Notes under the pieces: model-generated | What the model was told of the DNA's origin: nothing | Seen by the model: the letters and a program-made list of their open reading frames with translations, nothing else | The model's database searches: none | Shown: positions 1 through 33,503 of the stretch, in pieces | Layout of the letters: every line of letters starts with the position of its first letter | Position numbering within the stretch: position 1 is the stretch's first letter | Made by a program: the position numbers and the translations under genes | Virus record (IMG/VR): IMGVR_UViG_3300028588_000055 | Span: 1 to 36,995 of that record | Length of the DNA stretch: 36,995 nucleotides | Strand: one strand, 5' to 3' | Source: a virus | Lineage: Duplodnaviria > Caudoviricetes

Positions 1-135
1 GAAGTGCAAATGCGGCGCATTCGGATCCGAATTGCCGGTCACACCCACGTAGCCGACCAGGTCACCACGTTTGACCGTCGCACCTTCCTGCAGCCCATCG
101 GCGTAGCGGTCCAGGTGCGCATAGTAATAGGCGTA
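1..135 (-). pseudogene. Displaced 3' part of the host M23 peptidase gene (continues left of the window)
   Basis: Minus strand reads [45 protein letters not shown], the same as the ORF at 36667-36990 except one V/I; no start codon, homology stops at 135. Confidence 0.88.
128..135. repeat. att core (left junction) TAGGCGTA
   Basis: Identical 8-mer at 36872-36879; homology to the right copy ends exactly here. Confidence 0.8.
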
Positions 136-2118: not shown

Positions 2119-2505
2119 TTAGGTGTTTTTCCAGCTGAACAGCTCACCGTCATCAACCAACGGGGTGTTAGCCAGCGACTCTGCAAGCTGACGTTGCTTT
2201 GCCGATCTGGCTTTCAGTTTGGCTTTCGGCTGTACTTGGTGGACTGAAACCCAATCAAATTGGTCAATCCAGATTCGATCTTGCGCCTTATACGACCACA
2301 CGAGTGCGCGAACTACTTTCGTCTGGACTTGGTAACGAGCATTCAATGTCAACTGGCTTACGTCGAATGTGCTAGTTGATGGGATGCGCCATTGCTCTGA
2401 CTGCCCATTTGCAAACAACTCGTAAAAAACGGCCTTCGCTGTAATCTTGGTAATCACCACATCAAGTACGCGTGGTGTCAGTGGTTTGTTCGATTGCTTC
2501 GTCAT
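2119..2505 (-). CDS. Hypothetical phage protein
   Basis: 128-aa ORF with an AGGAG RBS and a TAAATA motif upstream on the minus strand (2553-2558). Confidence 0.7.
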   Translation of the reverse strand: MTKQSNKPLTPRVLDVVITKITAKAVFYELFANGQSEQWRIPSTSTFDVSQLTLNARYQVQTKVVRALVWSYKAQDRIWIDQFDWVSVHQVQPKAKLKARSAKQRQLAESLANTPLVDDGELFSWKNT

Positions 2506-3078: not shown

Positions 3079-3272
3079 CTCATTTTTGCCATGATGATGA
3101 GTGATGACTCAACTTCTAGGTGTTAGATGGGTTTCCCAATAAGGAGATAATAAGAGTTGATGTTTTGAGCATCACTTCGTTCGCTCAAAACCAATCTTAC
3201 CTTCCTTCGGAAGTAGTTCTGGATAAACCCAGAAACCAATAACTGTTGGTCGCTACGCTCCTTCCCAGAAGA
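3079..3272 (-). repeat. Structured ~195-bp element, copy 1 (inverted relative to 13622-13817)
   Basis: Near-identical to the reverse complement of 13622-13817; several hairpins. Confidence 0.92.
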
Positions 3273-3479
3273 GCTGGTTGAAAGACACCGAGTGTATGAA
3301 CGCGCCGCGAGCTTGTGCGACTGCCTTAATAAGAGTTGATGTCTCGGCTAGTCAAGACATACAAATTGCAGCGGTACGCAATCTGCCTTATCCTAAATAC
3401 TTGCAGAGACAGGGAGTGCAATGCTTCCGCAACATTCGTTCTCGCTCCTAGTGTTATTTTTAGTCATACTGTTCACAAG

Positions 3480-3506
3480 AAAGCCCAGTTCGCGAACTGG
3501 GCTTTT
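3480..3506 (+). terminator. Rho-independent terminator (26-bp perfect palindrome)
   Basis: AAAGCCCAGTTCGCGAACTGGGCTTTT. Confidence 0.75.
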
Positions 3507-3620
3507 GCGTATGTGGCTGATGTCAAACTCTATTTTGAGCACGGTTTTCGAGCTGCTACCATAAATAACTCTGAACGCCTGAACAACGTTCAACTAAAAA
3601 TAATAATAGAGAGTATCCCG

Positions 3621-4430
3621 ATGACATTCCCATCATTTGGCGCAAGCGTCAGCGCCGACCCATTTAAGGACTTTTTCGCACACCAAGATCAACTGACGTA
3701 CTTGGACAGCAACCCAGAGCCAGCCGTTGAGGTCAAGCCTGAAGTCAAGCAGGAGACACGGCAAGGCGATCCGCACCGCATGAAGAAAGTAGGTGAGCAA
3801 CTGGTCGATGACCACGCGTCCAACTACTCGCTCCCCAACCTCGATCACATCTCGTGGATGCGCGTTGAGCTGTTCCACAACGAACCAGGCAGCGGGCTAA
3901 CTGAATGGGTGCTCAAGTTCATCATCAACGAATGCGCAGCGCCAGAGCATGTGAACACATCGCTTAGCACTCGCGAAGTCTACTTCAACCTGTTTTCAGG
4001 CTATGCATTCAAACGCGCACTCGGCAACTGCAAAGAGAACCCAACATTCCTGAATCGCTTTGCCAGGGTGTACGAGCGAGCAAAGGGCCGCTTAAAGGAG
4101 ATCAAGGCATGTCGGCCACGCGGACAAAAGACTATCGACGCGCCAATTGATCAAGTGGTTGCCGGTTTCTGCTACGTGAAGAAAGCACCTTGGGGCACTG
4201 TCACGTTCCCACAGCAGCAAGCGGTTTTGATGCCTTGGTCAATGCCGGGCCGAAAGCACGAAGCTATACTGTCATTGCGTCAGAACGATCAACGCTTCCG
4301 TACCATTATCATGCATGACATGCGCGGCCACATACCAGAAGGGAAAACGCAGCGCGACGAAAACGCCGCTGTTATGGTTGGCTATTTGGATCAGGTGGGT
4401 TACATGGAATGGCTGACGGCAAATCAGTAA
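3621..4430 (+). CDS. Hypothetical phage protein (269 aa)
   Basis: Probable start is ATG 3621 after GAGAG; the upstream ORF extension crosses a terminator; no family recognised. Confidence 0.7.
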   Translation: MTFPSFGASVSADPFKDFFAHQDQLTYLDSNPEPAVEVKPEVKQETRQGDPHRMKKVGEQLVDDHASNYSLPNLDHISWMRVELFHNEPGSGLTEWVLKFIINECAAPEHVNTSLSTREVYFNLFSGYAFKRALGNCKENPTFLNRFARVYERAKGRLKEIKACRPRGQKTIDAPIDQVVAGFCYVKKAPWGTVTFPQQQAVLMPWSMPGRKHEAILSLRQNDQRFRTIIMHDMRGHIPEGKTQRDENAAVMVGYLDQVGYMEWLTANQ

Positions 4431-4446
4431 AACGGACGCCAACAAA

Positions 4447-4473
4447 AAAGAGTGACAGCGCTTGTCACTCTTT
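4447..4473. promoter_or_regulatory. Palindrome AAAGAGTGACA-N5-TGTCACTCTTT (terminator and/or operator) directly upstream of a -35 box
   Basis: Perfect 11-bp arms; degenerate copy at 2603-2630. Confidence 0.6.
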
Positions 4474-4552
4474 GCTTGATGAACATGATTGATGGCTGCA
4501 CCATTGGTGTACTGCAAAACGTTGCAGCAACTAACCAAATGGAGCGAATAAA

Positions 4553-4978
4553 ATGGCAAAGAACACCAACGCAGCAAACACCCCGGCAAACACCGAAGTA
4601 ACTGGCTTTCTGGCACAACTGGGGACGTTCGCAACTGCAATTACCGATTTGTCCCAAGTTGCTGTAAAACGCGACCCGGTAATTTACGCACGCACGAAAT
4701 TCGCGACTAACTGCGACGAGACGATCAAGCTGATTACGCAAGAAGCAGATCAGGGCAAGTTTTTCAAAAAAATCGCTGACGGCTTTTTGATTACGTTCCG
4801 CAACGGCAATTCGGCAATGCAGCTCAACGGCACGCAACACTTCAAAGTCGGCAACGTGGAAGCTGCAACCAAATTTGTGGAAGCTGCTAAAGCTGCTGCG
4901 GCAAATGGCGAACTCAATCAAGCATTCCGCGACACGATGCGCACCCCACGTAAAGCCAAAGACGAAACGCCAGCTTAA
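4553..4978 (+). CDS. Hypothetical phage protein
   Basis: GGAG RBS, repeated promoter module upstream, terminator downstream. Confidence 0.8.
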   Translation: MAKNTNAANTPANTEVTGFLAQLGTFATAITDLSQVAVKRDPVIYARTKFATNCDETIKLITQEADQGKFFKKIADGFLITFRNGNSAMQLNGTQHFKVGNVEAATKFVEAAKAAAANGELNQAFRDTMRTPRKAKDETPA

Positions 4979-4995
4979 CTAACAACACATAAGCA

Positions 4996-5024
4996 AAAAT
5001 GGCACCCTGCGCGGGTGCTATTTT
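4996..5024 (+). terminator. Rho-independent terminator
   Basis: AAAATGGCACCC...GGGTGCTATTTT. Confidence 0.6.
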
Positions 5025-5099
5025 CATTTAAGCTCGACGAGAAATAATTTGAAGCGTGTAGCAGGGTATCGCACCATAGATACATTACAAGGAGCGATG

Positions 5100-5573
5100 A
5101 TGACCAACACCCAGCAATCCAGAATAAGACTGCCTGCACGCCACGGCAAGAACTTACCAAGACCACCAGACCTTAACAACCTGAACAGGCATGCGCTTGT
5201 AACCAAAGCGTTCTCGCGCATGTTCTATCTGATGGACACAACCGACAAACTCGACTGCGTGATCAACAACCAAGCCGTAGCTGCAATCCGAGTAACGGCG
5301 CCGTATGTAACGCAAGACCGAGCACGCATTATGAAGCTGGCGTTTGCGATCCTAACCACGACCGGAGACAAGCTCATAGCGATCGACTTTGAAGCAAAGG
5401 CCCAGAACGTAGGCCAGATCACCGTCTACGTGCCAAGACCAGATGCGGCACACCTGGAACTGGCAATCAAGGAACAACATCAACTGGCAATCGAGGAATG
5501 GGGAGCAGCTAACAAACAGCGTGCCCGCTTAATTGAGCGCTATCTAGTGATTGCACAACACTTACCTACGTAA
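5100..5573 (+). CDS. Hypothetical phage protein
   Basis: AAGGAG RBS at 5089-5094; promoter TTGAAG-N17-CACCAT upstream. Confidence 0.7.
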   Translation: MTNTQQSRIRLPARHGKNLPRPPDLNNLNRHALVTKAFSRMFYLMDTTDKLDCVINNQAVAAIRVTAPYVTQDRARIMKLAFAILTTTGDKLIAIDFEAKAQNVGQITVYVPRPDAAHLELAIKEQHQLAIEEWGAANKQRARLIERYLVIAQHLPT

Positions 5574-5581
5574 ACAATTCG

Positions 5582-6748
5582 TTACCTAATGTCTTTGCCT
5601 AATGAATGGAATTGCTCAAGCCTGCCGTCTGTATCAATCTTGAGGTTGAAATAATCGCCATTAAAGAAGACCGACATTGCTCCTTTCCGATTAAATGGCT
5701 TATTTTCTGTCTTGAAGTGTAATTCGATCTCGTCGTCAATGCTCATCAAGACCTTCTCTATCAAACTGCCGAGGTCTTTTGGTTTGTAAGGCAATGGAGT
5801 CTTTACCGCAAAATCACCTAGTTGAAACTCTTTGATGTGTCTCATTGTAATGTGCAGATAAGAAGTGAGGTCCCAGTAAATCTGCTTCTTCTTATGTAGC
5901 AAGATTCCAGGTTCAAATTTTAATGCGGACTCCATCAAAGATTTCAGGGCGTCTTGCGTGCGAGGCGATAGCGCTTTCGATAGATTGGATTTCTCTAGCT
6001 CTTCTGCGACAGCCATAATGACCCTAGCTTTCTTAATGAATGCCAAGTCGGACTTTTGCCTTTCCTCATCTTCGGTTAAGCGACGATGTCGTGCTTTGGC
6101 TTTAATTCTCGCAAAGCCTATGTTGACGTTTGTTTGCAGGTCTTCAATAGTAAAGCCAAAGTGATCCAAAAGTCTTCTATCGATCTGACCATAGACTCCA
6201 AGCAGTGTACCAACTAACTCTTCCTTCTCAAATGGGATCAGTTCATAACCACTATTGATTTTGCTGGCAAGGTAACCTATGAGTAGCTTACTCTCATCAA
6301 CATCGGAAAGATCAGCCTCTACATACACGACGTTTGGAATCTTTTTTTCTCCCGACTCATGGATTTCAACTGGGCGCGAATAGTGAAGATACGAGATACT
6401 CAGCAAATCCTCTAATAGGACACCTTTGTACTTCAGCGCTTTCTTTTGTTCAGTGCTTAAAAGCTGATCTGGTGAATCAATGCGTAAAATTGAAAGGTTT
6501 GGCAGCTCTGTTGGGTTATCAAGGCCCTCCAGGTAGTGCAAGGTCTGAAAAGTATTGAACAGTGTTCCAGTAATTACTGGTCCGTAAGTTTCATACGCTT
6601 TACTGTTTTCCTTGAAGAAGAAACTTGTCATGTACCCTCTGCGACCGACCATCTCATGTAAGTCATGCATGTGGAAGCAAGGACCTTCGACGTCAATTGA
6701 CGGAAGACCAACGTCAATTAAGTTGGTTATCTTGTATTGGCCAATCAT
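5582..6748 (-). CDS. AT-rich accessory protein, possible C-terminal nuclease/toxin domain
   Basis: 388-aa ORF with low GC, antisense to its neighbours; C-terminal HITMRH...GRLEQFH. Confidence 0.7.
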   Translation of the reverse strand: MIGQYKITNLIDVGLPSIDVEGPCFHMHDLHEMVGRRGYMTSFFFKENSKAYETYGPVITGTLFNTFQTLHYLEGLDNPTELPNLSILRIDSPDQLLSTEQKKALKYKGVLLEDLLSISYLHYSRPVEIHESGEKKIPNVVYVEADLSDVDESKLLIGYLASKINSGYELIPFEKEELVGTLLGVYGQIDRRLLDHFGFTIEDLQTNVNIGFARIKAKARHRRLTEDEERQKSDLAFIKKARVIMAVAEELEKSNLSKALSPRTQDALKSLMESALKFEPGILLHKKKQIYWDLTSYLHITMRHIKEFQLGDFAVKTPLPYKPKDLGSLIEKVLMSIDDEIELHFKTENKPFNRKGAMSVFFNGDYFNLKIDTDGRLEQFHSLGKDIR

Positions 6749-7259
6749 AATCAGAGCTCTCGAGTCAACTTAGGTAAAGCTTACCAAATGATACTACTGC
6801 CCTGTGAATAAGTTGAAATTGCATAAAAGCAATAGTCGCCAAAGGTCACGACGACGGTTCAGCTACCCTGTGTCGAACTGGCCTCAAACGCTGCTGGTAT
6901 GACGATCTATGACGTGCTGTGACGTGTTGCGGGTTTGATGCCCTGTGTACTAGCTGTGCTGGGCAGTGGGGAGGAATGCAGGAGGGCAGGGCATTTGTGC
7001 AGATTTTGCACGCGATGCCCAACTGTCGCGTAAGCGCTTGATTCTTCTGATGCTTTGTAGAGGTCTGTAATACTCAGCGTATTGCACAGGTCACGCTTTG
7101 TACACATGAGGTTACGTAACCTCATGATTCTTCTGATGTTTCTGGAGTTATTCACAAAATCGAACCGGCCTGTGAATAACCGGCCGATTCCTGATCCCGA
7201 AAACGCATGTCTGCTTGGCTTGGCTGCTGCCGTATAGGTGGCGTCAAACAAAAACTGAT
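6749..7259. other. Non-coding repeat/palindrome island (candidate origin or recombination site)
   Basis: DnaA-box matches at 6803-6811, 7148-7156 and 7171-7179; 22-bp perfect palindrome at 7105-7126; 14-bp direct repeat at 7039 and 7125; arm-like motif at 7004-7014. Confidence 0.5.
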
Positions 7260-7859
7260 TTAAATTTTGCTATCGGACTTATAGCTCGGTAGCCCTCTAC
7301 GATAAGCAAGGATAGCTTCGCTAACGTTCTCGACTGCGGCTAGATAATCTTGTGCAGCCTCAGCTGTCGGAATAACTTTCACATGAGCTACCTGATTACG
7401 AAGTTCTCTTAGGGAACGTACCACTGTAGCGATTTCTGGAGGCAGTTTTTCGACGATTTTGCTGTAGACTTTACCTGTGTTTTCTAATGGGTCGTCGCAA
7501 AGTCCGAGTTGAAGACCTAATCGGAAGAGTTCACCATCAATGCTTCCCCATCCTTGCAGAATCGCTCCAGATGGGTTCGCACGAGCGTTTAGCAGTTCGG
7601 TAACGATTTTCTGGCTTGGCTTTTCGACGGGCGCCTCTGTAGCGGTAGGAGTCTGCGTACTCGTACGTGCTTCGGACGCTTCAGCTAATGCCTGTTTGGT
7701 GGCAAGTTCAAATTCTGCTTCGACTGGACCGGCCTTGAACTTTTTCATGGTTGGTAAAAGGTCCAGAATTCTCTTTCGAAAAGCGAGACCTAAAATCAAA
7801 GCAACGCTAGGCCAAGCTAATGATTCAATGACCTTGCTGATAAAAGTTAGACGATCCAA
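7260..7859 (-). CDS. Membrane-anchored HEPN-like (DUF4145-type) protein
   Basis: N-terminal LAWP transmembrane helix; Rx4H motif RNQVAH. Confidence 0.7.
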   Translation of the reverse strand: MDRLTFISKVIESLAWPSVALILGLAFRKRILDLLPTMKKFKAGPVEAEFELATKQALAEASEARTSTQTPTATEAPVEKPSQKIVTELLNARANPSGAILQGWGSIDGELFRLGLQLGLCDDPLENTGKVYSKIVEKLPPEIATVVRSLRELRNQVAHVKVIPTAEAAQDYLAAVENVSEAILAYRRGLPSYKSDSKI

Positions 7860-7923
7860 TTTTTCCCCAAGCTAGATACGGTAGTGGTCCTGCTGGACTG
7901 ATACCGATCTAATCATTGCTGCA

Positions 7924-8655
7924 CTAGAAAATGTTTTTCGTGAGCCATTCGGCGCCAGCTATTAATTCTTCGACTTGTTCCTTCGTGGGATCAACATCCT
8001 TCTTGTGCGAACAGAGATTGCGCAGATCAGCCAGGTAACTGATTTTTCGCCAGCCAGCCGTGTCGGTCACCGCCGCAGCTTTAAGCGGGTCATTGAGATC
8101 AGCAATCGTCGGATTCTTTTTAGGAATTTTAATTTCGTGCGCATCTGCTACTTTTTGAAGATGGCCTTCGATAACAACTCCAATGAGAGCCCCAGCAGCA
8201 CGGGGACTTACCTTCAACAGTTGTTTGGCAACCGCCACTTCATTGTCTTGAAGTTCCGAATACAGCTCGCCTTCTATGTTGGCTAATACTGAATTTACAC
8301 GTCCGTTTAATGCATGAAGTATGCTTAATTGATTTAAAAAGCATTGAAGTACCTGTTTACGACTATCAAAGTCATCGTATCCATACCCTCCCGGAACTAC
8401 ACCCTTCATGTAGTCTTGAATAACGTAAGTGCCGTAACCAAGCGATTTTCGCTTTGGATCGATCTCGTAATAGCCGCGAAATTCAGCATACCGGTCTGGC
8501 GCAAGGGAAGAAACGGCTTTTACGGCTTTGGTGTACCACCCTTGATAGTCGTAATGAAACTGTTTGTCCTGCTCCTTTTGAAACGCAGTAGCAAGCTTTA
8601 CTCCTCCCTTATAAAGATCATCGAGCTCTTTGTGAATGGCTTCGCGCTTAGTCAT
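7924..8655 (-). CDS. HEPN-domain protein (candidate abortive-infection RNase)
   Basis: AAGALIGVVIEGHL helix and RNLCSH Rx4H motif, typical of HEPN domains. Confidence 0.75.
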   Translation of the reverse strand: MTKREAIHKELDDLYKGGVKLATAFQKEQDKQFHYDYQGWYTKAVKAVSSLAPDRYAEFRGYYEIDPKRKSLGYGTYVIQDYMKGVVPGGYGYDDFDSRKQVLQCFLNQLSILHALNGRVNSVLANIEGELYSELQDNEVAVAKQLLKVSPRAAGALIGVVIEGHLQKVADAHEIKIPKKNPTIADLNDPLKAAAVTDTAGWRKISYLADLRNLCSHKKDVDPTKEQVEELIAGAEWLTKNIF

Positions 8656-8718
8656 TTGGTCCCAGTAATGGAATGTTGCCTCACTCTATTGTCGTACTTT
8701 GATGGTCAAAAGGCAACA

Positions 8719-9135
8719 TCAAACTCGCCATTTCGAGGGGCGCATGCCTTGTTCTTCGCGGTGCTTCGTGATCTGTTTGCGGCGGTACTCTCTCCAACTC
8801 GCGCGGTAACTACCACTCGTGTGTCGTCGCCAGTCACAGACTGCATCACCCATCACAGGAACCCAGCGCGGATTCGGGCCCACGCTCGCGAAGTGCAAAG
8901 GGCTTGCTATCTCGGCTTTCCATCGCTCGATGATCTGCGCGAAGGGTAAAGACAAGTGATCCCATTCGCCAGCCTTCCACATTGCGTCAAACGACGCCAG
9001 TAGCAACAGCTCGCGTTTCTTCGCCTCCGCTTCCCGCTTCCAAAAGCCATGACTGAACAGGTCAGTTGGCAAGCCCAGGTTGCGAAGCCGCTTCATGTTG
9101 TCTGCTCTCAGACTACGACGTTGTCCTCGTTTCAC
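8719..9135 (-). CDS. Basic, Trp-rich hypothetical phage protein
   Basis: GTG start with a GGGAG RBS; TAAATA on the minus strand at 9190-9195. Confidence 0.6.
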   Translation of the reverse strand: MKRGQRRSLRADNMKRLRNLGLPTDLFSHGFWKREAEAKKRELLLLASFDAMWKAGEWDHLSLPFAQIIERWKAEIASPLHFASVGPNPRWVPVMGDAVCDWRRHTSGSYRASWREYRRKQITKHREEQGMRPSKWRV

Positions 9136-9196
9136 TTGATTGTCTCCCGATTGATAAATAGCCGACGGCTCATGATGAGCCAGCGAGGTTATTTAA

Positions 9197-9598
9197 GTGG
9201 AAGACAAGAACAAGACGACCAAGGAGGTCGCGGAGGTCAGCGCCGAAACGCTAGACAAGCTGGCAAGCCCAGATGCCGACATTCGACAAAGCGGTTTGAT
9301 CGACATCTTTGAACAGCACTTGCCTGTAATCCCACCTGACTACGTGTTCAAGCGCAAGGATCGCAAGTTTGTTGAAGACGCACTCAACGTTGCGTTCGAT
9401 CTGACAGGCGGTATCCCGCGCTTAACGAAGTACGCGCACGAGAACTACAACGAGTTCATTAAGCTCTATGCGCGCATGCTACCCGAGGCGCAGAAGGCCG
9501 AGACAGGCCCGGCCGTTGTGCAGGTATTCCATAACGTCCCGTCGTCGCCGCTCGACCTGGGCGACGTTGTAGACATGGATGACCCGGACGATGAGTAA
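9197..9598 (+). CDS. Putative terminase small subunit
   Basis: Directly upstream of and overlapping TerL; GG..L..YA.EN..EF.KLY.R.LP pattern common in podovirus TerS. Confidence 0.7.
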   Translation: MEDKNKTTKEVAEVSAETLDKLASPDADIRQSGLIDIFEQHLPVIPPDYVFKRKDRKFVEDALNVAFDLTGGIPRLTKYAHENYNEFIKLYARMLPEAQKAETGPAVVQVFHNVPSSPLDLGDVVDMDDPDDE

Positions 9599-11036
9599 CG
9601 GCGTCCAAACGATCCAACTCGACTACCAGCCCCGGCCAGCCTTTCTTCCCCTGCACCAGCGCACTAAGCGCTACACCGTAATCGTTGCGCACCGACGAGC
9701 GGGCAAGACGTACAGCGTAATTCAAGACCTGATCGCCCGCGCACTTAATTTCCAGAAGAAAGACCGCACCACCGGCAGGCTGTTTCCCCGACCGCGCTTT
9801 GCTTACCTCTGCCCTTACAAGGGACAGGCCAAGTTGGTCGCTTGGCAGTACCTGATCGACTTCACCAAGTCGATCCCCGGCGTGAAGAAGAACGAGACCG
9901 AACTTTGGGTCGAGGTTCCAACCGTCGCCGGCGACATGGCCCGCATCACGCTCGGCGGCGCTGACAACCCTGACAACTTGCGCGGTACGTATTACGACGG
10001 CGTTGTGCTCGACGAGTACGGTGACATGAAGCCAGATGCGTACAGCCTGGTTCTGCGTCCTGCGCTGTCTGACCGTAAAGGCTGGGTTGTCTTCATGGGT
10101 ACGCCCAAGGGCAAGAACGACTTTTATAGGCGCTGGTTGCGAGCTCAAGAATCACCAGACAAGTATTTCTCCCTGTGTTTGAAAGCCAGTACTAGCGGGA
10201 TTCTAGACCCACTCGAAATCGAGGCCATGAAGGAAGAAATGGAACCCGAGGAAGTGGATCAAGAGCTTGAGTGCTCTTTTGATGCTGCATTCAAGGGCGC
10301 TTTCTACGGCAAGCAGATCGCAATCGCTAATCAGCAGAATCGCTTCCGCACTCTTGAGTATGAGCCAGAAGAGAAGGTCAGTATTGCGATGGACTTGGGT
10401 CACAGCGATGCGGCTGTAATTTGGTTCTGGCAAGTCGTTAATGGCGAAATACGATTTATAGACTATTGGGAGCAATCCGGCTACGACGCTGAAGAAGTCT
10501 GCGACATGCTCGCCCTCAAGCCATACGACTATGAAACGGTATGGCTCCCACATGATGCATTGCACCGCACGTTTGCAAGCAAGAAGTCAGTGCTTGATAC
10601 GTTTATCGAGAAGGGTCTGCCAGCTCGTAAAGCACCGAACCCAGACCGAGGCAATCGAGTAATGCACGGTATTGATGCTGTGCGTAAGTTCCTGCGAACT
10701 TGGCCATTCGCGATTGATAAAGAAAGCTGTGCTCGCGGTATCGAAACACTCAAGAACTACAGCCGCAAATACAACCGCTCAACCAACAGTTATGGGAGCG
10801 AAGCCGATCACAACGAGTGGTCACACGGTGCTGACGCATTCCGTTATGCGGTTCTCTCTATAAAAGAAGCTGATCTTGGTCGATCCGTCGAGCGAGGGCG
10901 TCAACGCCACATCGCGCGGCTAACAAATCACGGCCAAGTAAATAATCATCGCGGTATCACTCTGAACGAAGCATTTGCTTCAAGAGACCGCCAGATGATG
11001 ATTAAGAGACGCGATGTAAGTCGAGCATTCGACTAA
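9591..11036 (+). CDS. terL: Terminase large subunit
   Basis: Walker A HRRAGKT, Walker B VVLDE, coupling motif GTPKG, nuclease motifs MDLG and HGADAFRY; alternative start at 9579. Confidence 0.95.
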   Translation: MSNGVQTIQLDYQPRPAFLPLHQRTKRYTVIVAHRRAGKTYSVIQDLIARALNFQKKDRTTGRLFPRPRFAYLCPYKGQAKLVAWQYLIDFTKSIPGVKKNETELWVEVPTVAGDMARITLGGADNPDNLRGTYYDGVVLDEYGDMKPDAYSLVLRPALSDRKGWVVFMGTPKGKNDFYRRWLRAQESPDKYFSLCLKASTSGILDPLEIEAMKEEMEPEEVDQELECSFDAAFKGAFYGKQIAIANQQNRFRTLEYEPEEKVSIAMDLGHSDAAVIWFWQVVNGEIRFIDYWEQSGYDAEEVCDMLALKPYDYETVWLPHDALHRTFASKKSVLDTFIEKGLPARKAPNPDRGNRVMHGIDAVRKFLRTWPFAIDKESCARGIETLKNYSRKYNRSTNSYGSEADHNEWSHGADAFRYAVLSIKEADLGRSVERGRQRHIARLTNHGQVNNHRGITLNEAFASRDRQMMIKRRDVSRAFD

Positions 11037-11072
11037 TGAATAAATGCGCCACAAGAAGCGCATGGAGCATAA

Positions 11073-13169
11073 ATGGATAACCAATACAATAACGAAGTGG
11101 AAGGACTGGAAAGCCCTGTAAACGAAGACGCATTTGAGCAATCGCCAGTGCAGAGCCAGTATCAAACTGAGGGCGAGCAGGAGAAGTGGCTTAAAGACCT
11201 TGAGGCAAGCCGCAAAGAGCGTAAGACGTTTAATGATACTGCTGTGAAAGCGATCAAGCGTTATCGTGATGATCGAGACGACGCGTTCAAAGACGCAAAG
11301 CTATACAACATCTACTTTTCGAATACCGAAATCAAGCTGTCAGCGCTTTATGCTCGCACACCGAAAGCTGACATCAAACGCCGCTTCGATGATACGCAAG
11401 ACGACGTTGCTCGTGTAGCGGGGATTCTGTTGCAACGCAATCTGGAATACGAAATGGATTCGTGCAACTTCGATGCGTCGTTCAAACAGGTCTTGTTTGA
11501 CCACGTTGTGCCAGGCATGGGCGTTAGCTGGCTGCGCCTTGAAGAACGCCGCGAAGCACAACCAGATGCAGTTGATCCAACTGGCCAGGTCATGCCGCAA
11601 GAGCCCTTAGTTGTTGACCAAGCCGCACATACAGATTATGTGGCATGGGACGACTTCTTTTGGAGTCCATGCAAGGTATGGACTATGTGCAGCTGGGTTG
11701 CTCGCCGCATTCCCATGACGCGTGAAGCAATTCAAGACCGCTTTGGTCATACCCTGCCGGCGGAACTCATGAAAGAGATTCAGTACAGCGACAAGCCAGA
11801 AACACAGGACGCGGGCAAGTCAAAGCTGGCTCCGCAGAACCAGACAGAGAAGACTGCAGACGTATACGAAATCTGGGACAAGGAGCGTCGCCTTGTGTTT
11901 TGGGTCAACGAGTCGTCTCCGGTTCCGCTGGACGTGCAGCCAGACACCATGGAGTTTGATGGCTTCTTCCCGACCCCATTACCACCGCTCGGCCGCTTCG
12001 ATACATCGAACACGATTCCGATTAGCGATTACTCCTTAGTGAAGGGAAAGTATGCGGAGCTGGACGCGCTCAACAACCGTTGCAATCAGCTGAGCAAGGC
12101 ATTGGGCGTGCGCTTCGCGTATGACGCATCCAATCCAGAGCTGAAAGACCTCTACACGACCGTTGGCGAGAACGAAGGCGTAGGCGTCAAGGACTGGAAC
12201 GCGTTGACGGAGAAGGGCGGTTTAACGGGCTCGATCCAGTTTGCACCGCTTGAGCCTGTCGCAAACGCATTCAGTATCGCATCGGCGCAGTTGGAGCGCA
12301 TCAAGGGCCAGATTCTGGAGGTAGAAGGTATCAGCGACATCATGCGCGGCCAGTCCATGCCGTACGAGACCGCCACCGCAACGACCTTGAAGGGTCAGCA
12401 ATCGTTTGGACGATTCGCGGCTCGTCAACAGCAAGTAGCTGAGTACGTGGAAGCCCTGCTTCGCTTGAAGGCCCACGTGATCTGCAAGTTCTACAAGCCA
12501 GAACTGATTGTGCAGCGAGCTATGCCATTGCAGCAAGCGGACCAGCAGTTCATCGGGCCAGCAATTCAACTGCTCAAAGACGAATTGATGAGCCTGTTCC
12601 GCTTGAGCGTTAGTGTGGACAGTTTGCAACTGCCCAACTGGAACACAGAGAAAGCCGAACGTAGCGAGGCTATTCAGGCAATTACAAAAATGATGAGTGT
12701 GATCATGCCTGCTGTACAGCAGACGCCAGAAATCGCCCCGTTGGGCTTGGAAATGATCAAGTTCGGCATCAGCGGCTTCAAAGGCGCGCAGTCAATCGAG
12801 GGCGTTGTTGATCAAGGTTTGCGCCAGCTTATGCAAGCTAAACAGCAGGGCCAAGGCCAGGGGCAGCAAAAGCCAGCGCCTGAACAGATCAAGGCCCAAG
12901 CTGCCATGCAAAAGACGCAAGCTGACCTGCAAATCGCTCAAATGCAAGAAGAAACAAAACGCATGGTCGCCCAGATGGATGCTCAAGTTAAACAAGCACA
13001 GATGGCTATGGCGCAGCAAAAAGCCGACTTTGAGAATCGCTTGCGTGCAATGGAAGTCCAAATCCGTCAGGGTGAATTAGCAGCTCAAGTTGCGCATCAA
13101 CAGGCTACTCAAGTACACAATGCGGCACTTGACTTGCTCGACAACGGCAAGATTGATGGGAGCGCTTAA
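11073..13169 (+). CDS. Portal protein (P22-like, with Gln-rich C-terminal barrel)
   Basis: 698 aa after TerL; GISDIMRG..ETAT motif; long coiled-coil C-terminus. Confidence 0.88.
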   Translation: MDNQYNNEVEGLESPVNEDAFEQSPVQSQYQTEGEQEKWLKDLEASRKERKTFNDTAVKAIKRYRDDRDDAFKDAKLYNIYFSNTEIKLSALYARTPKADIKRRFDDTQDDVARVAGILLQRNLEYEMDSCNFDASFKQVLFDHVVPGMGVSWLRLEERREAQPDAVDPTGQVMPQEPLVVDQAAHTDYVAWDDFFWSPCKVWTMCSWVARRIPMTREAIQDRFGHTLPAELMKEIQYSDKPETQDAGKSKLAPQNQTEKTADVYEIWDKERRLVFWVNESSPVPLDVQPDTMEFDGFFPTPLPPLGRFDTSNTIPISDYSLVKGKYAELDALNNRCNQLSKALGVRFAYDASNPELKDLYTTVGENEGVGVKDWNALTEKGGLTGSIQFAPLEPVANAFSIASAQLERIKGQILEVEGISDIMRGQSMPYETATATTLKGQQSFGRFAARQQQVAEYVEALLRLKAHVICKFYKPELIVQRAMPLQQADQQFIGPAIQLLKDELMSLFRLSVSVDSLQLPNWNTEKAERSEAIQAITKMMSVIMPAVQQTPEIAPLGLEMIKFGISGFKGAQSIEGVVDQGLRQLMQAKQQGQGQGQQKPAPEQIKAQAAMQKTQADLQIAQMQEETKRMVAQMDAQVKQAQMAMAQQKADFENRLRAMEVQIRQGELAAQVAHQQATQVHNAALDLLDNGKIDGSA

Positions 13170-13205
13170 ATCAAATAAATAAGCGAAACTAACCTAATCA
13201 ATACG

Positions 13206-13574
13206 ATGCCAACCTACACAGCACATTGCCTTACTTGCGGGCACGAGCAAGACTACATTCGCAGTATCGCAAACCGCAACGACACTCCCCTATGTTGTGA
13301 AACGCCGATGGTCAAGGGGCTGACTGCCCCGGCCATCAGCGCAATGGCCTTTACTGGCCATAAAGGCTTTCACATGCCAGATGGTCAGCATGGAGGCAAG
13401 GGAACTTGGATTGAATCCGGCCAGGACTACAAGAAATACCTGAAAGAGCACAACAAACTGCCAGCGAGCGAAGGCGCAGCCGAAGCGCGTCTGCAAAAGC
13501 GAAATGCCGACGCAGCGGATAACAAAAAGCGCCGTCAAGCAGTTATTAAGGCGGTCGAGAAGCTGAGTAGGTAA
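13206..13574 (+). CDS. FmdB-family zinc-ribbon protein
   Basis: MPTY..CLTCGH..PLCCETPM. Confidence 0.75.
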   Translation: MPTYTAHCLTCGHEQDYIRSIANRNDTPLCCETPMVKGLTAPAISAMAFTGHKGFHMPDGQHGGKGTWIESGQDYKKYLKEHNKLPASEGAAEARLQKRNADAADNKKRRQAVIKAVEKLSR

Positions 13575-13621
13575 TGCGACAGCGAGCAAGCGCGCTCAAA
13601 CTTTCCTTGGTTATTTCTTTT

Positions 13622-13817
13622 TCTTCTGGGAAGGAGCGTAGCGACCAATCAGTTATTGGTTTCTGGGTTCACCCAGAACTACTTCCGTAGGAAGGTAAGA
13701 TTGGTTTTGAGCTGAACGAAGTGATGCTCAAAACATCAACTCTTATTATCTCCTTATTGGCAGCCCTTCTTCAAACCAAGAAGTTAAGTCATCACTCATC
13801 ATCATGGCAAAAATGAG
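13622..13817 (+). repeat. Structured ~195-bp element, copy 2
   Basis: Inverted copy of 3079-3272. Confidence 0.92.
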
Positions 13818-13896
13818 CGAAACCGCTAGAAAGGAATGCCGAACAAATAAATAACGATAGGCAGTAATAGTGCTGCCAGAACATGAGGAACACGCC

Positions 13897-14940
13897 ATGT
13901 CTGACTTTGAAGATACCAGCAAAGAGCTGGAAGTCACGGACAACGTTGACCAATACGACGTAGCACCCGAAGTACAAGAAACACCAGATACACCAGAAGT
14001 TGAAACCGATGAGCCGAAGTCACTGCACGATGTAGTGCGTAAGGCTTACGAGAAAACAACTGGTGCAAAAGAGCCCCCAGCGCCGGAGCCAGTTAAAGCT
14101 GAGCTCTCCAAGGAAGTCGATCCAATCACAGGTCGTGAAATCGAACCTATCCGCGCACCAGCAAGCATGACGCCGATGTTGCGTGAGAAGTGGAATGCGG
14201 TCCCTCGTGAGTTCCAAAAATACTGGATCGACCGCGAACGCGACATCCAGACCCGACTGAATGACACTGTCGACGAACGCAAACTGGCTAAGCAATTCAA
14301 CGAGGTTGCTGCTCCATACGAAGCCATGTTCCGTCAGCACGGCACCAATGCAGTCGCCCATACGAAAGAACTGCTGAACTTGGATTATCAACTTCGCACT
14401 GGCTCGCCGGCACAAAAGGCGCAGCTGCTCCATAGCATGATCATGCATTTTCAACCAGACGTGCGAGTTCTTGCCGAACTGGCTGCTGGTCAACCTATGC
14501 CGCAATCGCAAGCCCAGCAAGCGCCGAACGTGCAAGACCTGGTTCGCCAAGAGCTTGAGGCTCGTGAAGAGAAGCAAGTCATGGATAACGTCAACCGTGA
14601 GATTGCTGCGTTTTCGGCTGATCCACAGAATGAGTTCCTGAATGAGCTTCGCCCGCTGATGCAAAAGGCCATCGACGGAAGCTGGGTGACCGGCAACACC
14701 ATGCCCGAACTGCTCCGCAATGCTTACGACTTTGCGGCAAAGCATCACCCAGAAGTGGCGCAAGTCCTTGCCAGTCGCGCGGCGCAAACCCCGGTAAATC
14801 AGGTAGCACAGACCACAAAGCCAATCCAGAGCGTTAAGCCATCCCTTGCAAGTGGTGGCCGCGGTGGCCAATCAATGCCCCGCCCAAAATCACGGCGCGA
14901 AGCAGTTGAGTTGGCTTACAACAAACACGCCGGTAAGTAA
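13897..14940 (+). CDS. Capsid scaffolding protein
   Basis: Acidic N-terminus, helical body, basic C-terminal helix; lies between portal and capsid; GAGGA RBS. Confidence 0.75.
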   Translation: MSDFEDTSKELEVTDNVDQYDVAPEVQETPDTPEVETDEPKSLHDVVRKAYEKTTGAKEPPAPEPVKAELSKEVDPITGREIEPIRAPASMTPMLREKWNAVPREFQKYWIDRERDIQTRLNDTVDERKLAKQFNEVAAPYEAMFRQHGTNAVAHTKELLNLDYQLRTGSPAQKAQLLHSMIMHFQPDVRVLAELAAGQPMPQSQAQQAPNVQDLVRQELEAREEKQVMDNVNREIAAFSADPQNEFLNELRPLMQKAIDGSWVTGNTMPELLRNAYDFAAKHHPEVAQVLASRAAQTPVNQVAQTTKPIQSVKPSLASGGRGGQSMPRPKSRREAVELAYNKHAGK

Positions 14941-15018
14941 TACAGAGTTCGTTCGCCGCAAGTGAACGAACTTTCCTAAATAGACCAAACACACAACCAC
15001 GACGGAGAATTAGTACAA

Positions 15019-15246
15019 ATGACTGTTTCGCTTTTTTCACTGATCGTGGCGCAAGGCGCCGAAATGCCAGTTGTTGACCCTAGATTAACAACACATGTCG
15101 AGTACGCTTCGCGTGTCAATACAAATTCGCCTGGACCAGCGACGCAAGCTGATTCGATTGCTACGACAGATGAGCTGGATGCGCAGCCAGTTATCACCGG
15201 TAATAGCAAGACAACAGATGCGGTGGCATCCAGCGGGAAAGAGTAA
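15019..15246 (+). CDS. Small hypothetical protein
   Basis: 75-aa ORF with GGAG and TAAATA (14977) upstream. Confidence 0.45.
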   Translation: MTVSLFSLIVAQGAEMPVVDPRLTTHVEYASRVNTNSPGPATQADSIATTDELDAQPVITGNSKTTDAVASSGKE

Positions 15247-15294
15247 AGACCTCGATTAGAAACGGTCGCTAGCCAAATAATAAGGATAAAAACA

Positions 15295-16266
15295 ATGGCA
15301 TTCCCAAACCTTAGTGACCTCGCTGCGACTACCATCGAGTTTCGCTCGAAAGACATCGCTGACAACGTAACAAATCACAACGCCGCGCTTCTGGCAATGA
15401 AGAAGTCGGGCGGCATCGCCAGCTTTGATGGTGGTACTTTCATTAACGAGAACCTGTCCTTTGCCGAAAACGGCAACGGTGGTTCGTACAGCGGCTATGA
15501 CGTGCTGCCAACCGCACCGTCTGACGTGATCTCGGCTGCTCAATACACGTTCTCGCAGTACGCAGTTCCTGTCGTGTTCTCCGGTCGTGAGACCTTGATC
15601 AACAGCGGCAAGGAAGCTGTGATCGATCTGGTCGAAGCGCGCGTCAAAGTTGCTGAATCGACCATGAGCAACCTGTTGAACCGTCATTTTTACCTGGACG
15701 GTACTGGTAACAGCGGTAAGAACATCACCGGTCTTGCGGCTGCAATCCCGCTGGCAAACACTGCTGGCGTGTACGGTGGTATCGATCGCGCTAACTATGC
15801 TTTCTGGCGCAACCAGAAATACCAGGCATCGGTCGACGGCGCAGGTGTTGCTACTACTGGCGCAGAACTGATTGCTCAGTGGAATCTGTTCATGACTAAA
15901 CTGACCCGTGGCACCGACAAACCGAAGATCATCCTCGCCTCGCCGGAAGTGTTCTCACTGTATGAGTCTGGTTTGCAAAACATGCAGCGCATCACCGACA
16001 CTACTCTGGGCGCAGCTGGCTTCACCACGCTGACCTTCCAAGGTATCCCAGTCGTGTTTGACACTGCTGTGTCTGGCATCGGCGCTAACGCTGCTTACTT
16101 CCTGAATACTGATTACATGAAGTGGCGTTCGCACAAAGACCGTAACATGATCGCACTGGAAGACAAGTCGGCAGTGAACCAAGACAGCACTGTCAAGACT
16201 CTGGCTTGGGCCGGTAACTTGACCATGAGCGGCGCGAAGTTCCAAGGCGTATACAGCAACTCCTAA
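15295..16266 (+). CDS. Major capsid protein
   Basis: 323 aa; ATT..RSK.IADNV..HNA.L start typical of this podovirus capsid family; strong codon bias; terminator follows. Confidence 0.9.
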   Translation: MAFPNLSDLAATTIEFRSKDIADNVTNHNAALLAMKKSGGIASFDGGTFINENLSFAENGNGGSYSGYDVLPTAPSDVISAAQYTFSQYAVPVVFSGRETLINSGKEAVIDLVEARVKVAESTMSNLLNRHFYLDGTGNSGKNITGLAAAIPLANTAGVYGGIDRANYAFWRNQKYQASVDGAGVATTGAELIAQWNLFMTKLTRGTDKPKIILASPEVFSLYESGLQNMQRITDTTLGAAGFTTLTFQGIPVVFDTAVSGIGANAAYFLNTDYMKWRSHKDRNMIALEDKSAVNQDSTVKTLAWAGNLTMSGAKFQGVYSNS

Positions 16267-16296
16267 TTCGTAGTGTGAACTAACGTTGTGTAAGAG

Positions 16297-16325
16297 AGGG
16301 CTTCTTCGGAGGCCCTTTTTCTTTT
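16297..16325 (+). terminator. Rho-independent terminator
   Basis: AGGGCTTC-TTCG-GAGGCCCT followed by a T-run. Confidence 0.85.
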
Positions 16326-16433
16326 GAGGATAAATAATGGTTGCAACTGGTAATTGTGCCATTGCGTAATGCCGCCAGTTTGGTGAGCCGCAATAACAAG
16401 CGTAACTCGCACCGATCACGGCAGGAGACATAA

Positions 16434-17135
16434 ATGAATAAAAACACAAATAATGGTATCGATCTGAACGTTGCGATTGCAACTCAGGGCACAGGAAGCC
16501 GCTTCATTGAAGAAGAGCATAACGGCATTCGCGATCCACTTACGGGCCGTTTTGCTACACACAAAGACTACGGTGGTGATTTAGGCGTGAATCTGCATTT
16601 CACTGTCGAGCCAGTTTTTTCGAAGAAAGAAACCTATCTGGCTGGTGGCGTGCCGAAATACGTTGACATGGATTTCATCACAATTTCCATCCCAGGTGAT
16701 AACTACACGAAAGTACATCGTCCTGTAACCGACTTTGACCAATGGCGATTCCCGCGCGAGTACGAAGCATTTAAGCGTGGTCAAGAAGCATCTGTTGTGG
16801 GCGTTCCGCTGGACATGTGGCCCGGTGTTGGTCCGTCGCAAGTAATGGAACTCAAGCATCACGGAATTCGAACCGTCGAGCAACTGGCAAACCTGTCCGA
16901 TAGCACTAATGGCGCACTTCGCGGGTTCTACGCATACAAGCAGAAAGCACAGCAGTACCTGGACGATGCTAAAGACAAGAATGCGGCTGCTGTCGTGCGT
17001 GCCCAGATGGATGAACAAGCCGAACGCCATAAAGCAGAAATGAAAGAAATGGAAGACCGGTTTGCTGCAATGCTTGAGCAAGCTATGTCCGCAAAAGAGC
17101 CGAAAGAAGTCAAGAAGACTAAAGCTGGCGAATAA
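16434..17135 (+). CDS. Phage protein with HhH-like motif and C-terminal coiled coil
   Basis: WPGVGPSQVMELKHHGIRTVEQLA helix-hairpin-helix-like segment; AGGAG RBS. Confidence 0.75.
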   Translation: MNKNTNNGIDLNVAIATQGTGSRFIEEEHNGIRDPLTGRFATHKDYGGDLGVNLHFTVEPVFSKKETYLAGGVPKYVDMDFITISIPGDNYTKVHRPVTDFDQWRFPREYEAFKRGQEASVVGVPLDMWPGVGPSQVMELKHHGIRTVEQLANLSDSTNGALRGFYAYKQKAQQYLDDAKDKNAAAVVRAQMDEQAERHKAEMKEMEDRFAAMLEQAMSAKEPKEVKKTKAGE

Positions 17136-17158
17136 CAAATAACGGAGACGACACAATA

Positions 17159-17878
17159 ATGGCGCAGAGAACCATTTTACAAATTGCCCAGGCTGTTAAT
17201 GCCGAACTTGGATTTCCCAAGCCCACGACGGTTGTGTCGTCTACCGATACGAACGTTATCAAGCTCCTTGCTCTGATCACCGCTACTTGCGAAGACCTAA
17301 TGAATGAGTTTGATTGGCAAGCACTGCAAAAGCGGTACACATTCAACACTCAAAACGGTGTCGAAGAGTATGCCTTGCCAACTGATACGGAGCGCTTTAT
17401 CAGTTCATCGTTCTTTGACCAGAACAATCGCTGGCCGATGCAAGGCCCCTTGAATGCAACTGAATGGGAAGCATTGCGCGTTAGCGGTCTGAATGCAAGT
17501 CCATTCCAGCGTTATCGCGTGTTTGGGAACATGTTGCATTTGTTTCCAACTCCAGGTGCATCACCTTACACGTTTGTTTATGAATACGTCAGCAATAGCT
17601 TTTGCACGAGCAGTGGCGGTGTGGCACAAACCACAGTCCAGCAAGACAGCGACATCATTTTGTTGGATTCACGCTGCGTGATTTACGGCTCGAAGCTGAA
17701 ATGGCTTTCATCAAACAACATGGACACTACGTCCGCACTTGTCGATTACATGCGCGCTCTCGATTTCGCTAAATCGTCTGACGTGCCAGCACGCCGTTTG
17801 AGTCTGGCCGGTGGCAGCATGGGAACGCCATTGCTATCGACTGCAAATCTGCCTGATACCGACTTCGGGGGTGTCTAA
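17159..17878 (+). CDS. Head-tail adaptor (tail tubular protein A-like)
   Basis: Position and size; W..L..Y.LP.D motif. Confidence 0.75.
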   Translation: MAQRTILQIAQAVNAELGFPKPTTVVSSTDTNVIKLLALITATCEDLMNEFDWQALQKRYTFNTQNGVEEYALPTDTERFISSSFFDQNNRWPMQGPLNATEWEALRVSGLNASPFQRYRVFGNMLHLFPTPGASPYTFVYEYVSNSFCTSSGGVAQTTVQQDSDIILLDSRCVIYGSKLKWLSSNNMDTTSALVDYMRALDFAKSSDVPARRLSLAGGSMGTPLLSTANLPDTDFGGV

Positions 17879-19524
17879 TGCCAAGGACTTCATTTAAGCC
17901 ACAACAACGAGCAGCAGCAACGGTACATCTACCAGCGCCGTCAGCGGGTCTCAATACACTTGATCCGCTGTCCAGTATGGACCCAGCGTACGGCCTGAGC
18001 ATTCAAAACTTCATCGCGACCAATCAAGGCCTGGCAGTGCGACAAGGCTATCGAAAATGGGCAACTGGTCTACCCGGCTCCGTGACCAGCTTGATTGCTT
18101 ACCACGCACGCAACAGCACATCGAGCCGACTGTTCGCCGTATCGCATGGGGGCCTCTACGACGTTACCAACGGGGGCGAGGTCGATTCTCCACTGGTGAG
18201 CGGCCTCAATCCAGATTACGGCTACTGGCAATACGCAGTGCAATCAGCCACCACCGCATCAAGTAACACGGTAGTTGCGGTCAATGGATACGACGCGCCG
18301 CTCATCTTCAACGGTTCGACCTGGACCCAAGCGAGCCAAGTCTCAACACCATCGGCTATTGGCGAGTTTTCCCGCCTAGACAACAACAGCCTCGAAGTTG
18401 ACATCAACCGTTTCGTTGATGTGATTCTGCATCAGCAGCGCCTGTGGTTTGTCGGCACCAACTCAACAACCGCCTACTACTGCGACATCGCCCAAGCTGG
18501 CGGCAAGCTGTATGCGTTCGACTTCGGTCCCCTGTTCCCAAACGGCGGACGACTCCACAAACTTGCTACTTGGACGACTGACGGTGGCGGATCAACGGGT
18601 ATCAAGGCCATGCTGGTAGCGATGTCGAACAAAGGCGATGTGGTCGTTTATCAAGGTACCAATCCGGCTGATGCGTCGAACTGGGGCTTGATGGGGCAAT
18701 ACAAAATGGGCTCGCCAGTTGGGCGCCGCTGCACTACTCAGTACGAGGGCGATTTGCTGGTATTGACTCAAGACGGTCTGTATCCGATGAGCCATCTGGA
18801 CTCAAACCGATTTGAAAACACATCGGCACTTACATACAAGATCACGCCGACGATCAGCAATCTGGCGGCTTCCTTATCGAACACTCCCGGCTTTGAGACA
18901 GCGTTCTATCCAGGCGCAAACCTGATGCTGTTGAATGTCCCGCAAAGCGTTCAAAGCAACAACTTCCAATTCTGTTTCAACACGATTACGAAAGGTTGGA
19001 CTCAGTTCACTGGCTGGCCGGCTCAATGCTTTGGTTTATACAATGATGCGTTTTATTTTGGCGGAACTGATTTTGTCGCACTGGCTTTCATCGGTTATCA
19101 AGATAACGCCGACATTAACGGCCAGAACGGTAACAACATCGTTGCCACGGCTATGACCGCATTCAATACGCTGGAAGAAGCGTTCGGCGTTGGTGTGGTC
19201 AAGCATGTGAATCAAGTAAAACCGTTCATCGTGACTGGTAGCTCAAACCCGAGTGTGCTTGTCGGCGTTAATACCGACTTTAATCTGACCGCAATTGTTG
19301 GTAGTGCGACGGTGAACCCTGTAACAGGCGCAGTTTGGGACAGCGCCAAGTTTGATGATCCAAATGCGACTTGGGTCGGCAATCTGACAACCTTTAATCG
19401 CTGGGCTGGTGTAGCCAGTTATCCAGGCTCTTATGTGGCAGTTACTTTATCAATCAGTGCAGCTACTGACACGCTTTGGACTGCCACTGACTTGCTGGTA
19501 GCGCCTGGAGGTCCATTTGCATGA
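17878..19524 (+). CDS. Tail nozzle / packaged-DNA stabilisation protein (P22 gp10-like)
   Basis: 548-aa beta-rich protein translationally coupled to the adaptor. Confidence 0.78.
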   Translation: MPRTSFKPQQRAAATVHLPAPSAGLNTLDPLSSMDPAYGLSIQNFIATNQGLAVRQGYRKWATGLPGSVTSLIAYHARNSTSSRLFAVSHGGLYDVTNGGEVDSPLVSGLNPDYGYWQYAVQSATTASSNTVVAVNGYDAPLIFNGSTWTQASQVSTPSAIGEFSRLDNNSLEVDINRFVDVILHQQRLWFVGTNSTTAYYCDIAQAGGKLYAFDFGPLFPNGGRLHKLATWTTDGGGSTGIKAMLVAMSNKGDVVVYQGTNPADASNWGLMGQYKMGSPVGRRCTTQYEGDLLVLTQDGLYPMSHLDSNRFENTSALTYKITPTISNLAASLSNTPGFETAFYPGANLMLLNVPQSVQSNNFQFCFNTITKGWTQFTGWPAQCFGLYNDAFYFGGTDFVALAFIGYQDNADINGQNGNNIVATAMTAFNTLEEAFGVGVVKHVNQVKPFIVTGSSNPSVLVGVNTDFNLTAIVGSATVNPVTGAVWDSAKFDDPNATWVGNLTTFNRWAGVASYPGSYVAVTLSISAATDTLWTATDLLVAPGGPFA

Positions 19525-20000: not shown

Positions 20001-20004
20001 CGAA

Positions 20005-20226
20005 ATGGGTCAAGGCACTTCACCACCAGTAACACCAGCTACACCAGCTACGCCAGCAAATCAAGGCAATTCGGCATTAAACGATAAACAGATTCAAGCA
20101 ATGGTTATTGCTTTGGGAAGCCTGGGCAAACGTCCACAAACAGCAAGCATGGGTCAGTCGTCAATGGCAGCGCAGCCGCAAACACAAACAATGCAGGCTG
20201 GCAGCTTCGTAAACGCCCGCAAATAG
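20005..20226 (+). CDS. Small low-complexity protein, possibly virion-internal
   Basis: AAGGA RBS; TPA repeats. Confidence 0.55.
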   Translation: MGQGTSPPVTPATPATPANQGNSALNDKQIQAMVIALGSLGKRPQTASMGQSSMAAQPQTQTMQAGSFVNARK

Positions 20227-20302
20227 TAAATAACATTAATCGTTAAACCAACGAAAGGAGCGCTATCGCTCAATAAACAACTAATTGATTAAGGACGCGC
20301 AG

Positions 20303-25252: not shown

Positions 25253-25255
25253 ACA

Positions 25256-27412: not shown

Positions 27413-27421
27413 TTGGTCTGA

Positions 27422-33501: not shown

Positions 33502-33503
33502 AC

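Follow-up and report, generated by a model that had tools for sequence, protein, structure and literature searches.

Inverted copies of a multi-hairpin element in a podovirus-like prophage and their possible role as a two-strand replication origin

The window analysed here is the whole IMG/VR record IMGVR_UViG_3300028588_000055 (36,995 bp), which holds a complete, integrated podovirus-like prophage of 36.7 kb. Two inverted copies of a structured element lie within it, and we consider that they plausibly constitute a replication origin, with one priming or replisome-loading signal per strand, read by enzymes that another replicon would lend in trans, a co-infecting T4-like phage being the most plausible lender; the chances of this reading appear to us evenly balanced. 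The two copies are as follows:

3079..3310, minus strand: structured element copy 1 (core 3079-3272, 5' leader to ~3310), with three C-GNA-G mini-hairpins, two of them with a tandem G-A frame (3260, 3182)
13587..13817, plus strand: structured element copy 2 (core 13622-13817), with GA-framed mini-hairpins at 13634 and 13714, a GTA hairpin at 13682-13694 and the closing helix 13631-13636/13750-13755

The inverted pair reported in the initial annotation was borne out, 3079-3272 being the reverse complement of 13622-13817 with 92.9% blastn identity over 197 nt (E 7e-75). All hairpins named in that annotation were recovered, and in the lowest-energy DNA structure of copy 2 they are enclosed by the pairing of AAGGAG (13631-13636) with CTCCTT (13750-13755). 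The differences between the copies fall, as had been noticed, in loops, bulges and a ~25-nt segment, to which one G-C to G-T change and one lost pair should be added. The core stood as originally delimited, but the start likely lies ~30 nt further 5', at about 3310 and 13587; this stretch is common to copy 1 and a relative, and is also found on the zinc-ribbon-side copy in one public run. Since contigs of the independent public run X4 show a collapsed shared core together with both left and both right flanks, the pair is no assembly artefact, and variants of the element were seen in runs X2, X3 and X5. Copy 2 sits in a ~280-nt insertion in the gap between the zinc-ribbon gene and the scaffold gene. 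Small open reading frames (ORFs) crossing the copies showed no conservation between copy 1 and copy 2.

Folding z-scores for the plus and minus strands of copy 2 were -3.92 and -3.73 as DNA, and -2.88 and -2.47 as RNA; the region is thus structured beyond chance, but strand and molecule are left undecided by energy alone. Loop classes were counted among the C-G-closed mini-loops of 15 element sequences. The folding strand carries 35 GNA, 15 GNYA, 14 TT, 4 GNRA and 1 UNCG loops, and the other strand 8 GNA, 4 TT, 1 GNRA and no UNCG loops. In a set of 7 non-redundant elements there are 27 GNA/GNNA loops on the folding strand and 5 on the other, compared with 5.4 ± 2.3 in shuffled sequences (0 of 1000 as high), and the window element has 6 such loops against 0.54 expected. 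When four public runs are compared, the central base of the loop is T, A or C, with G and A constant. Many of the hairpins are framed by G-A steps, whose pairing as tandem sheared G-A is possible on just one of the strands. This GA-framed motif occurs four times in the 37-kb window, each time within the two copies, and singles out the element less cleanly in the relatives G004 and G005. A loose scan for mini-hairpin density did not single out the element, and no mini-hairpin cluster was found in related loci L001-L086, which mostly span virion genes alone.

Such mini-hairpins melt at 76.5 °C as DNA and at 39 °C in the RNA form, bind single-stranded DNA-binding protein (SSB) poorly, and occur at the origins of phages G4, St-1 and alpha3, in the single-strand initiation (ssi) signal ssiA and in N4 promoters (PMC13037366). 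The CCGAAGG mini-hairpin named for ssiA in that source is present in window copy 1. The function in single-stranded DNA (ssDNA) suggested in the initial annotation is thus supported by loop classes and strand asymmetry, and we regard it as very probable that the element acts as ssDNA. Its other suggestion, a non-coding RNA read from the opposite strand with UUCG/UACG loops, has lost ground on the same loop counts: the letters are there, but they form no C(UNCG)G tetraloop with a second stacked pair.

Direct searches with the window element found no match in INPHARED, PLSDB, IMG/VR or the first 80 related loci, and had suggested that it was absent from relatives, an absence which the initial annotation would have taken as fatal. 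Self-comparison of whole relatives overturned this. Profile searches and inspection revealed element homologs in 10 of the 14 relatives fetched (G001, G002, G003, G004, G005, G115, G116, G117, G119 and G123), and in each of the 4 near-complete records; the homolog-free G118, G120 (20,000 of 22,389 bases examined), G121 and G122 are fragments, 43-72% complete, without the region after the holins. The element is family-wide, and the position after the holins is its usual site in most relatives. It exists in three forms, namely the window form, a medium form (G004, G005, G115 and contig 1 of G001) and a long form of 300-350 nt, and G116 has the 5' module of the window.

An opposed layout on both strands, as originally proposed, extends across the family. 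G004 and G005 have their own inverted pairs of ~200 nt, detected by whole-genome self-comparison and 88-93% identical within a genome; the short motifs of the window element recur in them in unchanged order. Paired copies are 86-93% identical within a genome and the elements of the window and G004 are only about 55% identical, so that the pairs must have been homogenised or separately duplicated. In long-form loci an opposite-strand partner lies 350-530 nt away. In G002, G123 and G001 this partner clearly repeats the 5' core, and in G003 and G117 it is a group of hairpins that has diverged further; these five relatives show a compact locus whose two structured halves face each other. The sequences of G116 and G119 stop before a partner could be seen, and G115 (81% complete) has one copy. 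It appears that in the window and two relatives the compact two-sided locus gave way to a single half present in two distant, homogenised copies.

A host repeat, such as a miniature inverted-repeat transposable element or a repetitive extragenic palindrome, would have overturned the initial annotation, and none emerged. Only 1 of 110 Massilia genomes matched, through a chance 27-nt hit in peptidase genes (Massilia is the genus of the nearest named carrier and may not be the host of the window), and the long form was found in none of 401 family genomes, in a search without a positive control. Furthermore, no match was obtained in 72,556 plasmids, or in Rfam at gathering or E-value thresholds. 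A 16-nt word search of metagenomes (9 of 64 parts) produced 117 loci, of which 116 were chance hits and one, L101, was the window's own record; hits to the window element in G001 and G022 and the locus L247 were likewise due to chance, and L243 duplicated G117. Neither Rfam, INPHARED and PLSDB nor the open-licence literature (without supplements) yielded a counterpart of the element, and within the same literature we found nothing on gp55-wired satellites.

The carrier, which the initial annotation had called an element with no visible replication gene, is delimited by attachment-site (att)-like repeats and encodes an integrase:

2..135, no strand: left att-like direct repeat, 88% identical to 36746-36879, inside the host M23 peptidase gene; prophage boundary
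36746..36879, no strand: right-end att-like direct repeat, partner of 2..135
35408..36442, minus strand: tyrosine integrase (domain library scans)
9197..32549, plus strand: complete podovirus-like virion module (terminase, portal, scaffold, Mx8-type capsid, adaptor, nozzle, ejection proteins, fibre and two small putative holins, the last so labelled from size and position)
2119..2505, minus strand: 128-aa protein conserved across the family, its predicted OB fold resembling that of SSB/PriB/LEF-3
3621..4430, plus strand: 269-aa protein with a TAAATA box upstream at 3562; low-confidence model with generic beta-barrel matches
3394..33540, plus strand: 16 TAAATA boxes of T4-late type, -10 only, with 12 of them between genes and 15 at most 170 nt from a gene start

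As had been claimed, no replication genes are recognisable: helicase, primase, polymerase, Rep and sigma factor were undetected with PHROGs, Pfam and NCBIfam, in scans of 47 called genes and of selections of 10, 20 and 21 genes. These scans took in the called genes and not all 222 mechanical ORFs, with only 14% of the window being intergenic, i.e. outside called genes. Among the clusters listed in a comparison across relatives, the conserved non-virion proteins were all small; small conserved proteins are encoded at 8719-9135, 4553-4978, 2667-2879 and 33008-33325. Judged by genes alone, the prophage has what characterises satellite viruses, its own virion genes and no recognisable replication genes.

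TAAATA on the late (plus) strand is enriched (16 boxes against 5.5 expected), in relatives also, and no -35 element was conserved over 113 TAAATA sites, so that the -10-only core upstream of late genes corresponds to a T4-type late promoter. In the T4 family, late promoters have the TAAATA consensus and are recognised by gp55, which acts together with gp33 and the gp45 clamp (PMC1524935); genes for gp55, gp33 and gp45 were undetected in the present phage family. The more distant locus L083 (capsid 56%) has 10 TAAATA boxes in 21 kb, and several GC-rich distant loci have none. Each of the five compact loci has, on the partner side, a TAAATA box that points into the element and behind which no gene was found (by a crude test, which missed real genes too).

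If the element does act as ssDNA, replication priming or loading would be its somewhat probable role, and we lean, to a similar degree, towards a T4-like helper rather than host DnaG/PriA as the provider. After excision the circle would become locally melted, and the TAAATA boxes without a gene that point into the locus in five relatives are what a transcription-opened origin would need. Each of the exposed strands would fold into a multi-arm structure resisting SSB coating, at which a primase or helicase loader would act, and synthesis from the two opposed signals would copy both strands, as from ssiA/ssiB of RSF1010. The phage's own OB-fold protein (2119-2505) would assist, and the T4-like helper would probably supply late transcription too. 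Priming, the identity of the helper and the essentiality of the elements are points that we infer. More speculatively, and with a rather low probability, the elements may be cis-acting signals for hijacking a helper, and the prophage a bacterial virophage, virion-complete and silent until T4-like infection. The helper sigma factor would then turn on its genes and also drive transcription from a gene-free late promoter into a two-sided origin of folded ssDNA, at which the helper primase or helicase would be captured.

A close likeness is to the oriV of the IncQ plasmid RSF1010, in which ssiA and ssiB are two single-strand initiation signals, one per strand (PMC13037366, PMC6925257), with a CCGAAGG mini-hairpin (PMC13037366), and for which bidirectional strand-displacement synthesis has been proposed (PMC13037366, PMC6925257). 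The phage element shares with such signals the DNA mini-hairpins on one strand, weakly so in the medium form. It differs in that ssiA is 40 nt long and the phage elements are multi-arm folds of 200-350 nt, in that the phage copies can lie 10-30 kb apart, and in that the carrier is an integrated tailed phage. Iterons and RepA/RepB'/RepC were not detected (Pfam, PHROGs and NCBIfam scans of called genes; no conserved candidate of that size); because Rep genes and sequence similarity to the plasmid oriV are missing, the element does not belong to the IncQ family. The primase-dependent complementary-strand origins of G4, St-1 and alpha3 are alike in having several GNA/GNNA hairpins on one strand, with poor SSB binding expected (PMC13037366), but they are single origins on ssDNA genomes, unlike the opposed pair in a double-stranded DNA prophage described here, which had no INPHARED sequence match. 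The plasmid-associated Rfam motifs ARRPOF, GEBRO and PAGEV are structured over 200-350 nt, with a proposed role in replication, possibly as ssDNA (PMC5737381), whereas the present element is phage-borne, paired and without an Rfam match.

As to the carrier, the Streptomyces satellite viruses MulchRoom and MiniFlayer similarly have their own encapsidation genes and no key replication genes, with a tyrosine integrase in MulchRoom (PMC10690885); they differ in virion lineage and host, the present phage has T4-type late boxes, and its dependence on a helper is putative. The available portions of PMC10690885 describe neither an origin nor a promoter for them. The short -10-only TAAATA core before late genes is shared with T4-family late promoters (PMC1524935), but positions before the core are not conserved in this phage family, and gp55, gp33 and gp45 were, as said, undetected.

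A number of observations weigh against the two copies being a helper-served origin. No helper phage was identified, the element had no match among INPHARED phages, and GC skew in 1-kb bins of the window showed no clear origin switch. A gene-free TAAATA box pointing into the locus is lacking at window copy 1, and the gene test behind these boxes in relatives is the crude one mentioned above. The products of 8719-9135, 4553-4978, 2667-2879 and 33008-33325 could be unrecognised replication or transcription factors. Copy 2 is evidently an insertion, since the zinc-ribbon/scaffold gap measures 21-54 nt in 21 of 21 close relatives covering it versus 322 nt in the window, and it lies at a type of site that holds variable cargo in relatives. 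Most copies run in the sense of neighbouring transcription, as an RNA role would also give, and ssDNA and RNA motifs are hard to separate by comparative methods (PMC5737381). Strand asymmetry is weak in the medium form (2 loops versus 1 each). Covariation, finally, is modest: both sides changed in 8 of 64 pairs across six long forms (2.8 ± 1.2 in shuffles), a count driven largely by the divergent G002 and based on a structure taken from the same alignment of 6 related sequences, and in 3 of 59 pairs of the medium form; between the two window copies, when aligned, there were no compensatory changes.

Among other explanations, the one that survives best, though we consider it unlikely, is a small non-autonomous mobile or recombination element that works in the form of folded ssDNA, in the manner of IS200/IS605 ends, IS91 ori/ter or integron attC. 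It would be moved or recombined by the adjacent 269-aa protein or the integrase, and inversion or rearrangement of genome modules would be the task of the inverted pair. The insertion of copy 2, missing from all 21 close relatives covering the gap, and the homogenisation of copy pairs within genomes agree with such a history. Moreover, the block of 2119/4553/2667 homologs and the integrase arm differ in side and orientation among relatives (G003 versus G004/G005/G001; window), and the junctions of this flipped early block lie near element sites. In G004 and G005 an ORF next to one of the copies is remotely homologous to the 3621-4430 product (profile E 5e-4; hhalign probability 19%, E 0.0012, across 57 columns), and such homologs were found only in the three genomes with duplicated pairs. 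The G004 homolog has a weak Pfam Replitron_HUH match (E 0.053), but HUH-like letters are not conserved, and the model of the window protein, with a predicted local distance difference test (pLDDT) score of 62, had no HUH or primase fold match. Fold searches with this protein gave generic barrels and one unnamed viral protein, and an Atlas search a weak integrase-core-binding lead alone. Mobility is further opposed by the low copy number (never more than two or three per genome), by the lack of copies in the 110 Massilia genomes, chance hits aside, and in the 401 family genomes, searched as above without a positive control, by the conserved position after the holins in most relatives and by the lack of a clear target duplication.

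All the ssDNA evidence would fit equally a folded signal with a job other than replication, such as an N4-like hairpin promoter or entry signal, or a decoy titrating ssDNA-binding enzymes of the helper or host. The N4 virion polymerase promoters use the same mini-hairpin chemistry (PMC13037366), but the ~3,500-aa virion RNA polymerase that reads the N4 hairpin promoter is not encoded here: the longest product of the window is a 994-aa tail fibre, and the largest ejection proteins, of 684-722 aa, had no polymerase match in PHROGs, Pfam and NCBIfam scans. The copies lie at internal, variable positions, a decoy has no need for one copy per strand, and the phage would be left without a candidate origin; we hold this explanation to be improbable.

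Least probable, in our estimate, is a structured non-coding RNA or cis-acting RNA leader, e.g. a decoy RNA or an antiterminator: the majority of copies point the way that transcription next to them runs, the late transcript from the box at 13176 passes over copy 2, and the two kinds of molecule are not easily told apart comparatively (PMC5737381), but the folding strand has 50 GNA and GNYA loops to 5 GNRA and UNCG loops, with no UNCG tetraloop on the other strand, RNA z-scores are weaker than those of DNA, an Rfam match is absent, and window copy 1 has no promoter-like site upstream on the folding strand. Tandem G-A pairs, CUUG and GAAA loops are stable in RNA as well. No RNA datasets were listed among the public runs with the sequence.

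Returning to the origin reading, satellite viruses of bacteria that build their own particle without replication genes have been described only recently, and their origins are undefined in the available text of PMC10690885. The window adds to this a family-wide, two-strand candidate origin in a TAAATA-box phage without recognisable replication genes. The family offers a small cloneable candidate origin, a nearby SSB-like predicted protein and a cultured, lysogen-like Massilia carrier, the nearest named one, with a capsid gene 82% identical. The element is, moreover, a rare multi-arm, naturally varying ssDNA fold in which loop classes tell a DNA function from an RNA one, a distinction usually beyond the reach of comparative screens. 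Should the virophage reading be true, it would be a new kind of helper-gated origin, and the dependence of satellite on helper would be testable with a 200-500-nt fragment.

Regarding the neighbouring proteins, the model of the 2119-2505 product (pLDDT 85.5) had OB folds as top matches, namely baculovirus LEF-3 (Z 7.9, rmsd 2.3, 67 aligned), PriB, SSBs and RPA; with Z < 8 this speaks for fold and not for function, and the protein is a candidate ssDNA-binding partner of the element. No relatives of the 3621-4430 and 4553-4978 proteins were found in IMG/VR. The gene at 8719-9135 (minus strand; 138 aa) is conserved in all 14 records covering it and divergent from the small terminase promoter; its product, which had no family or Atlas match, is a candidate regulator.

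Close to copy 1, a further unit was noted:

3320..3470, minus strand (orientation of copy 1): diverged partial tandem unit of low confidence, with a 16-nt stretch and the base of the long hairpin in common; covered by X2 and X3 contigs

A possible 47-aa ORF at 3421-3564 (plus strand), with a ribosome-binding site and behind the TAAATA box at 3394, overlaps this unit and a terminator-like hairpin at 3481-3508.

Integration within the M23 peptidase gene brings a replacement 3' end (window 2-135, 36667-36995). G004/G005 and G001 are integrated at other sites, and their integrases are 57-77% identical. Three short direct repeats at 36475-36553, between the integrase and att, and likewise beside the G001 integrase, are likely arm-type sites. 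ARAGORN found no tRNA or tmRNA in the window. The minus-strand gene at 27760-28581 is cargo matching the PADLOC candidate defence model PDC-S67 (E 2.4e-8), while a GNAT acetyltransferase gene (19521-20000) and a PAPS-reductase-like gene (22453-23208) lie among the virion genes and are kept in relatives. In L001-L028, cargo hotspots occupy the gaps between scaffold and the 15019-homolog, capsid and the 16434-homolog, and the 16434-homolog and adaptor, just upstream of TAAATA boxes; by reading of the sequences, their cargo comprises TIR-like, HNH and Hcp-like plus two genes, and lipoprotein-like ORFs.

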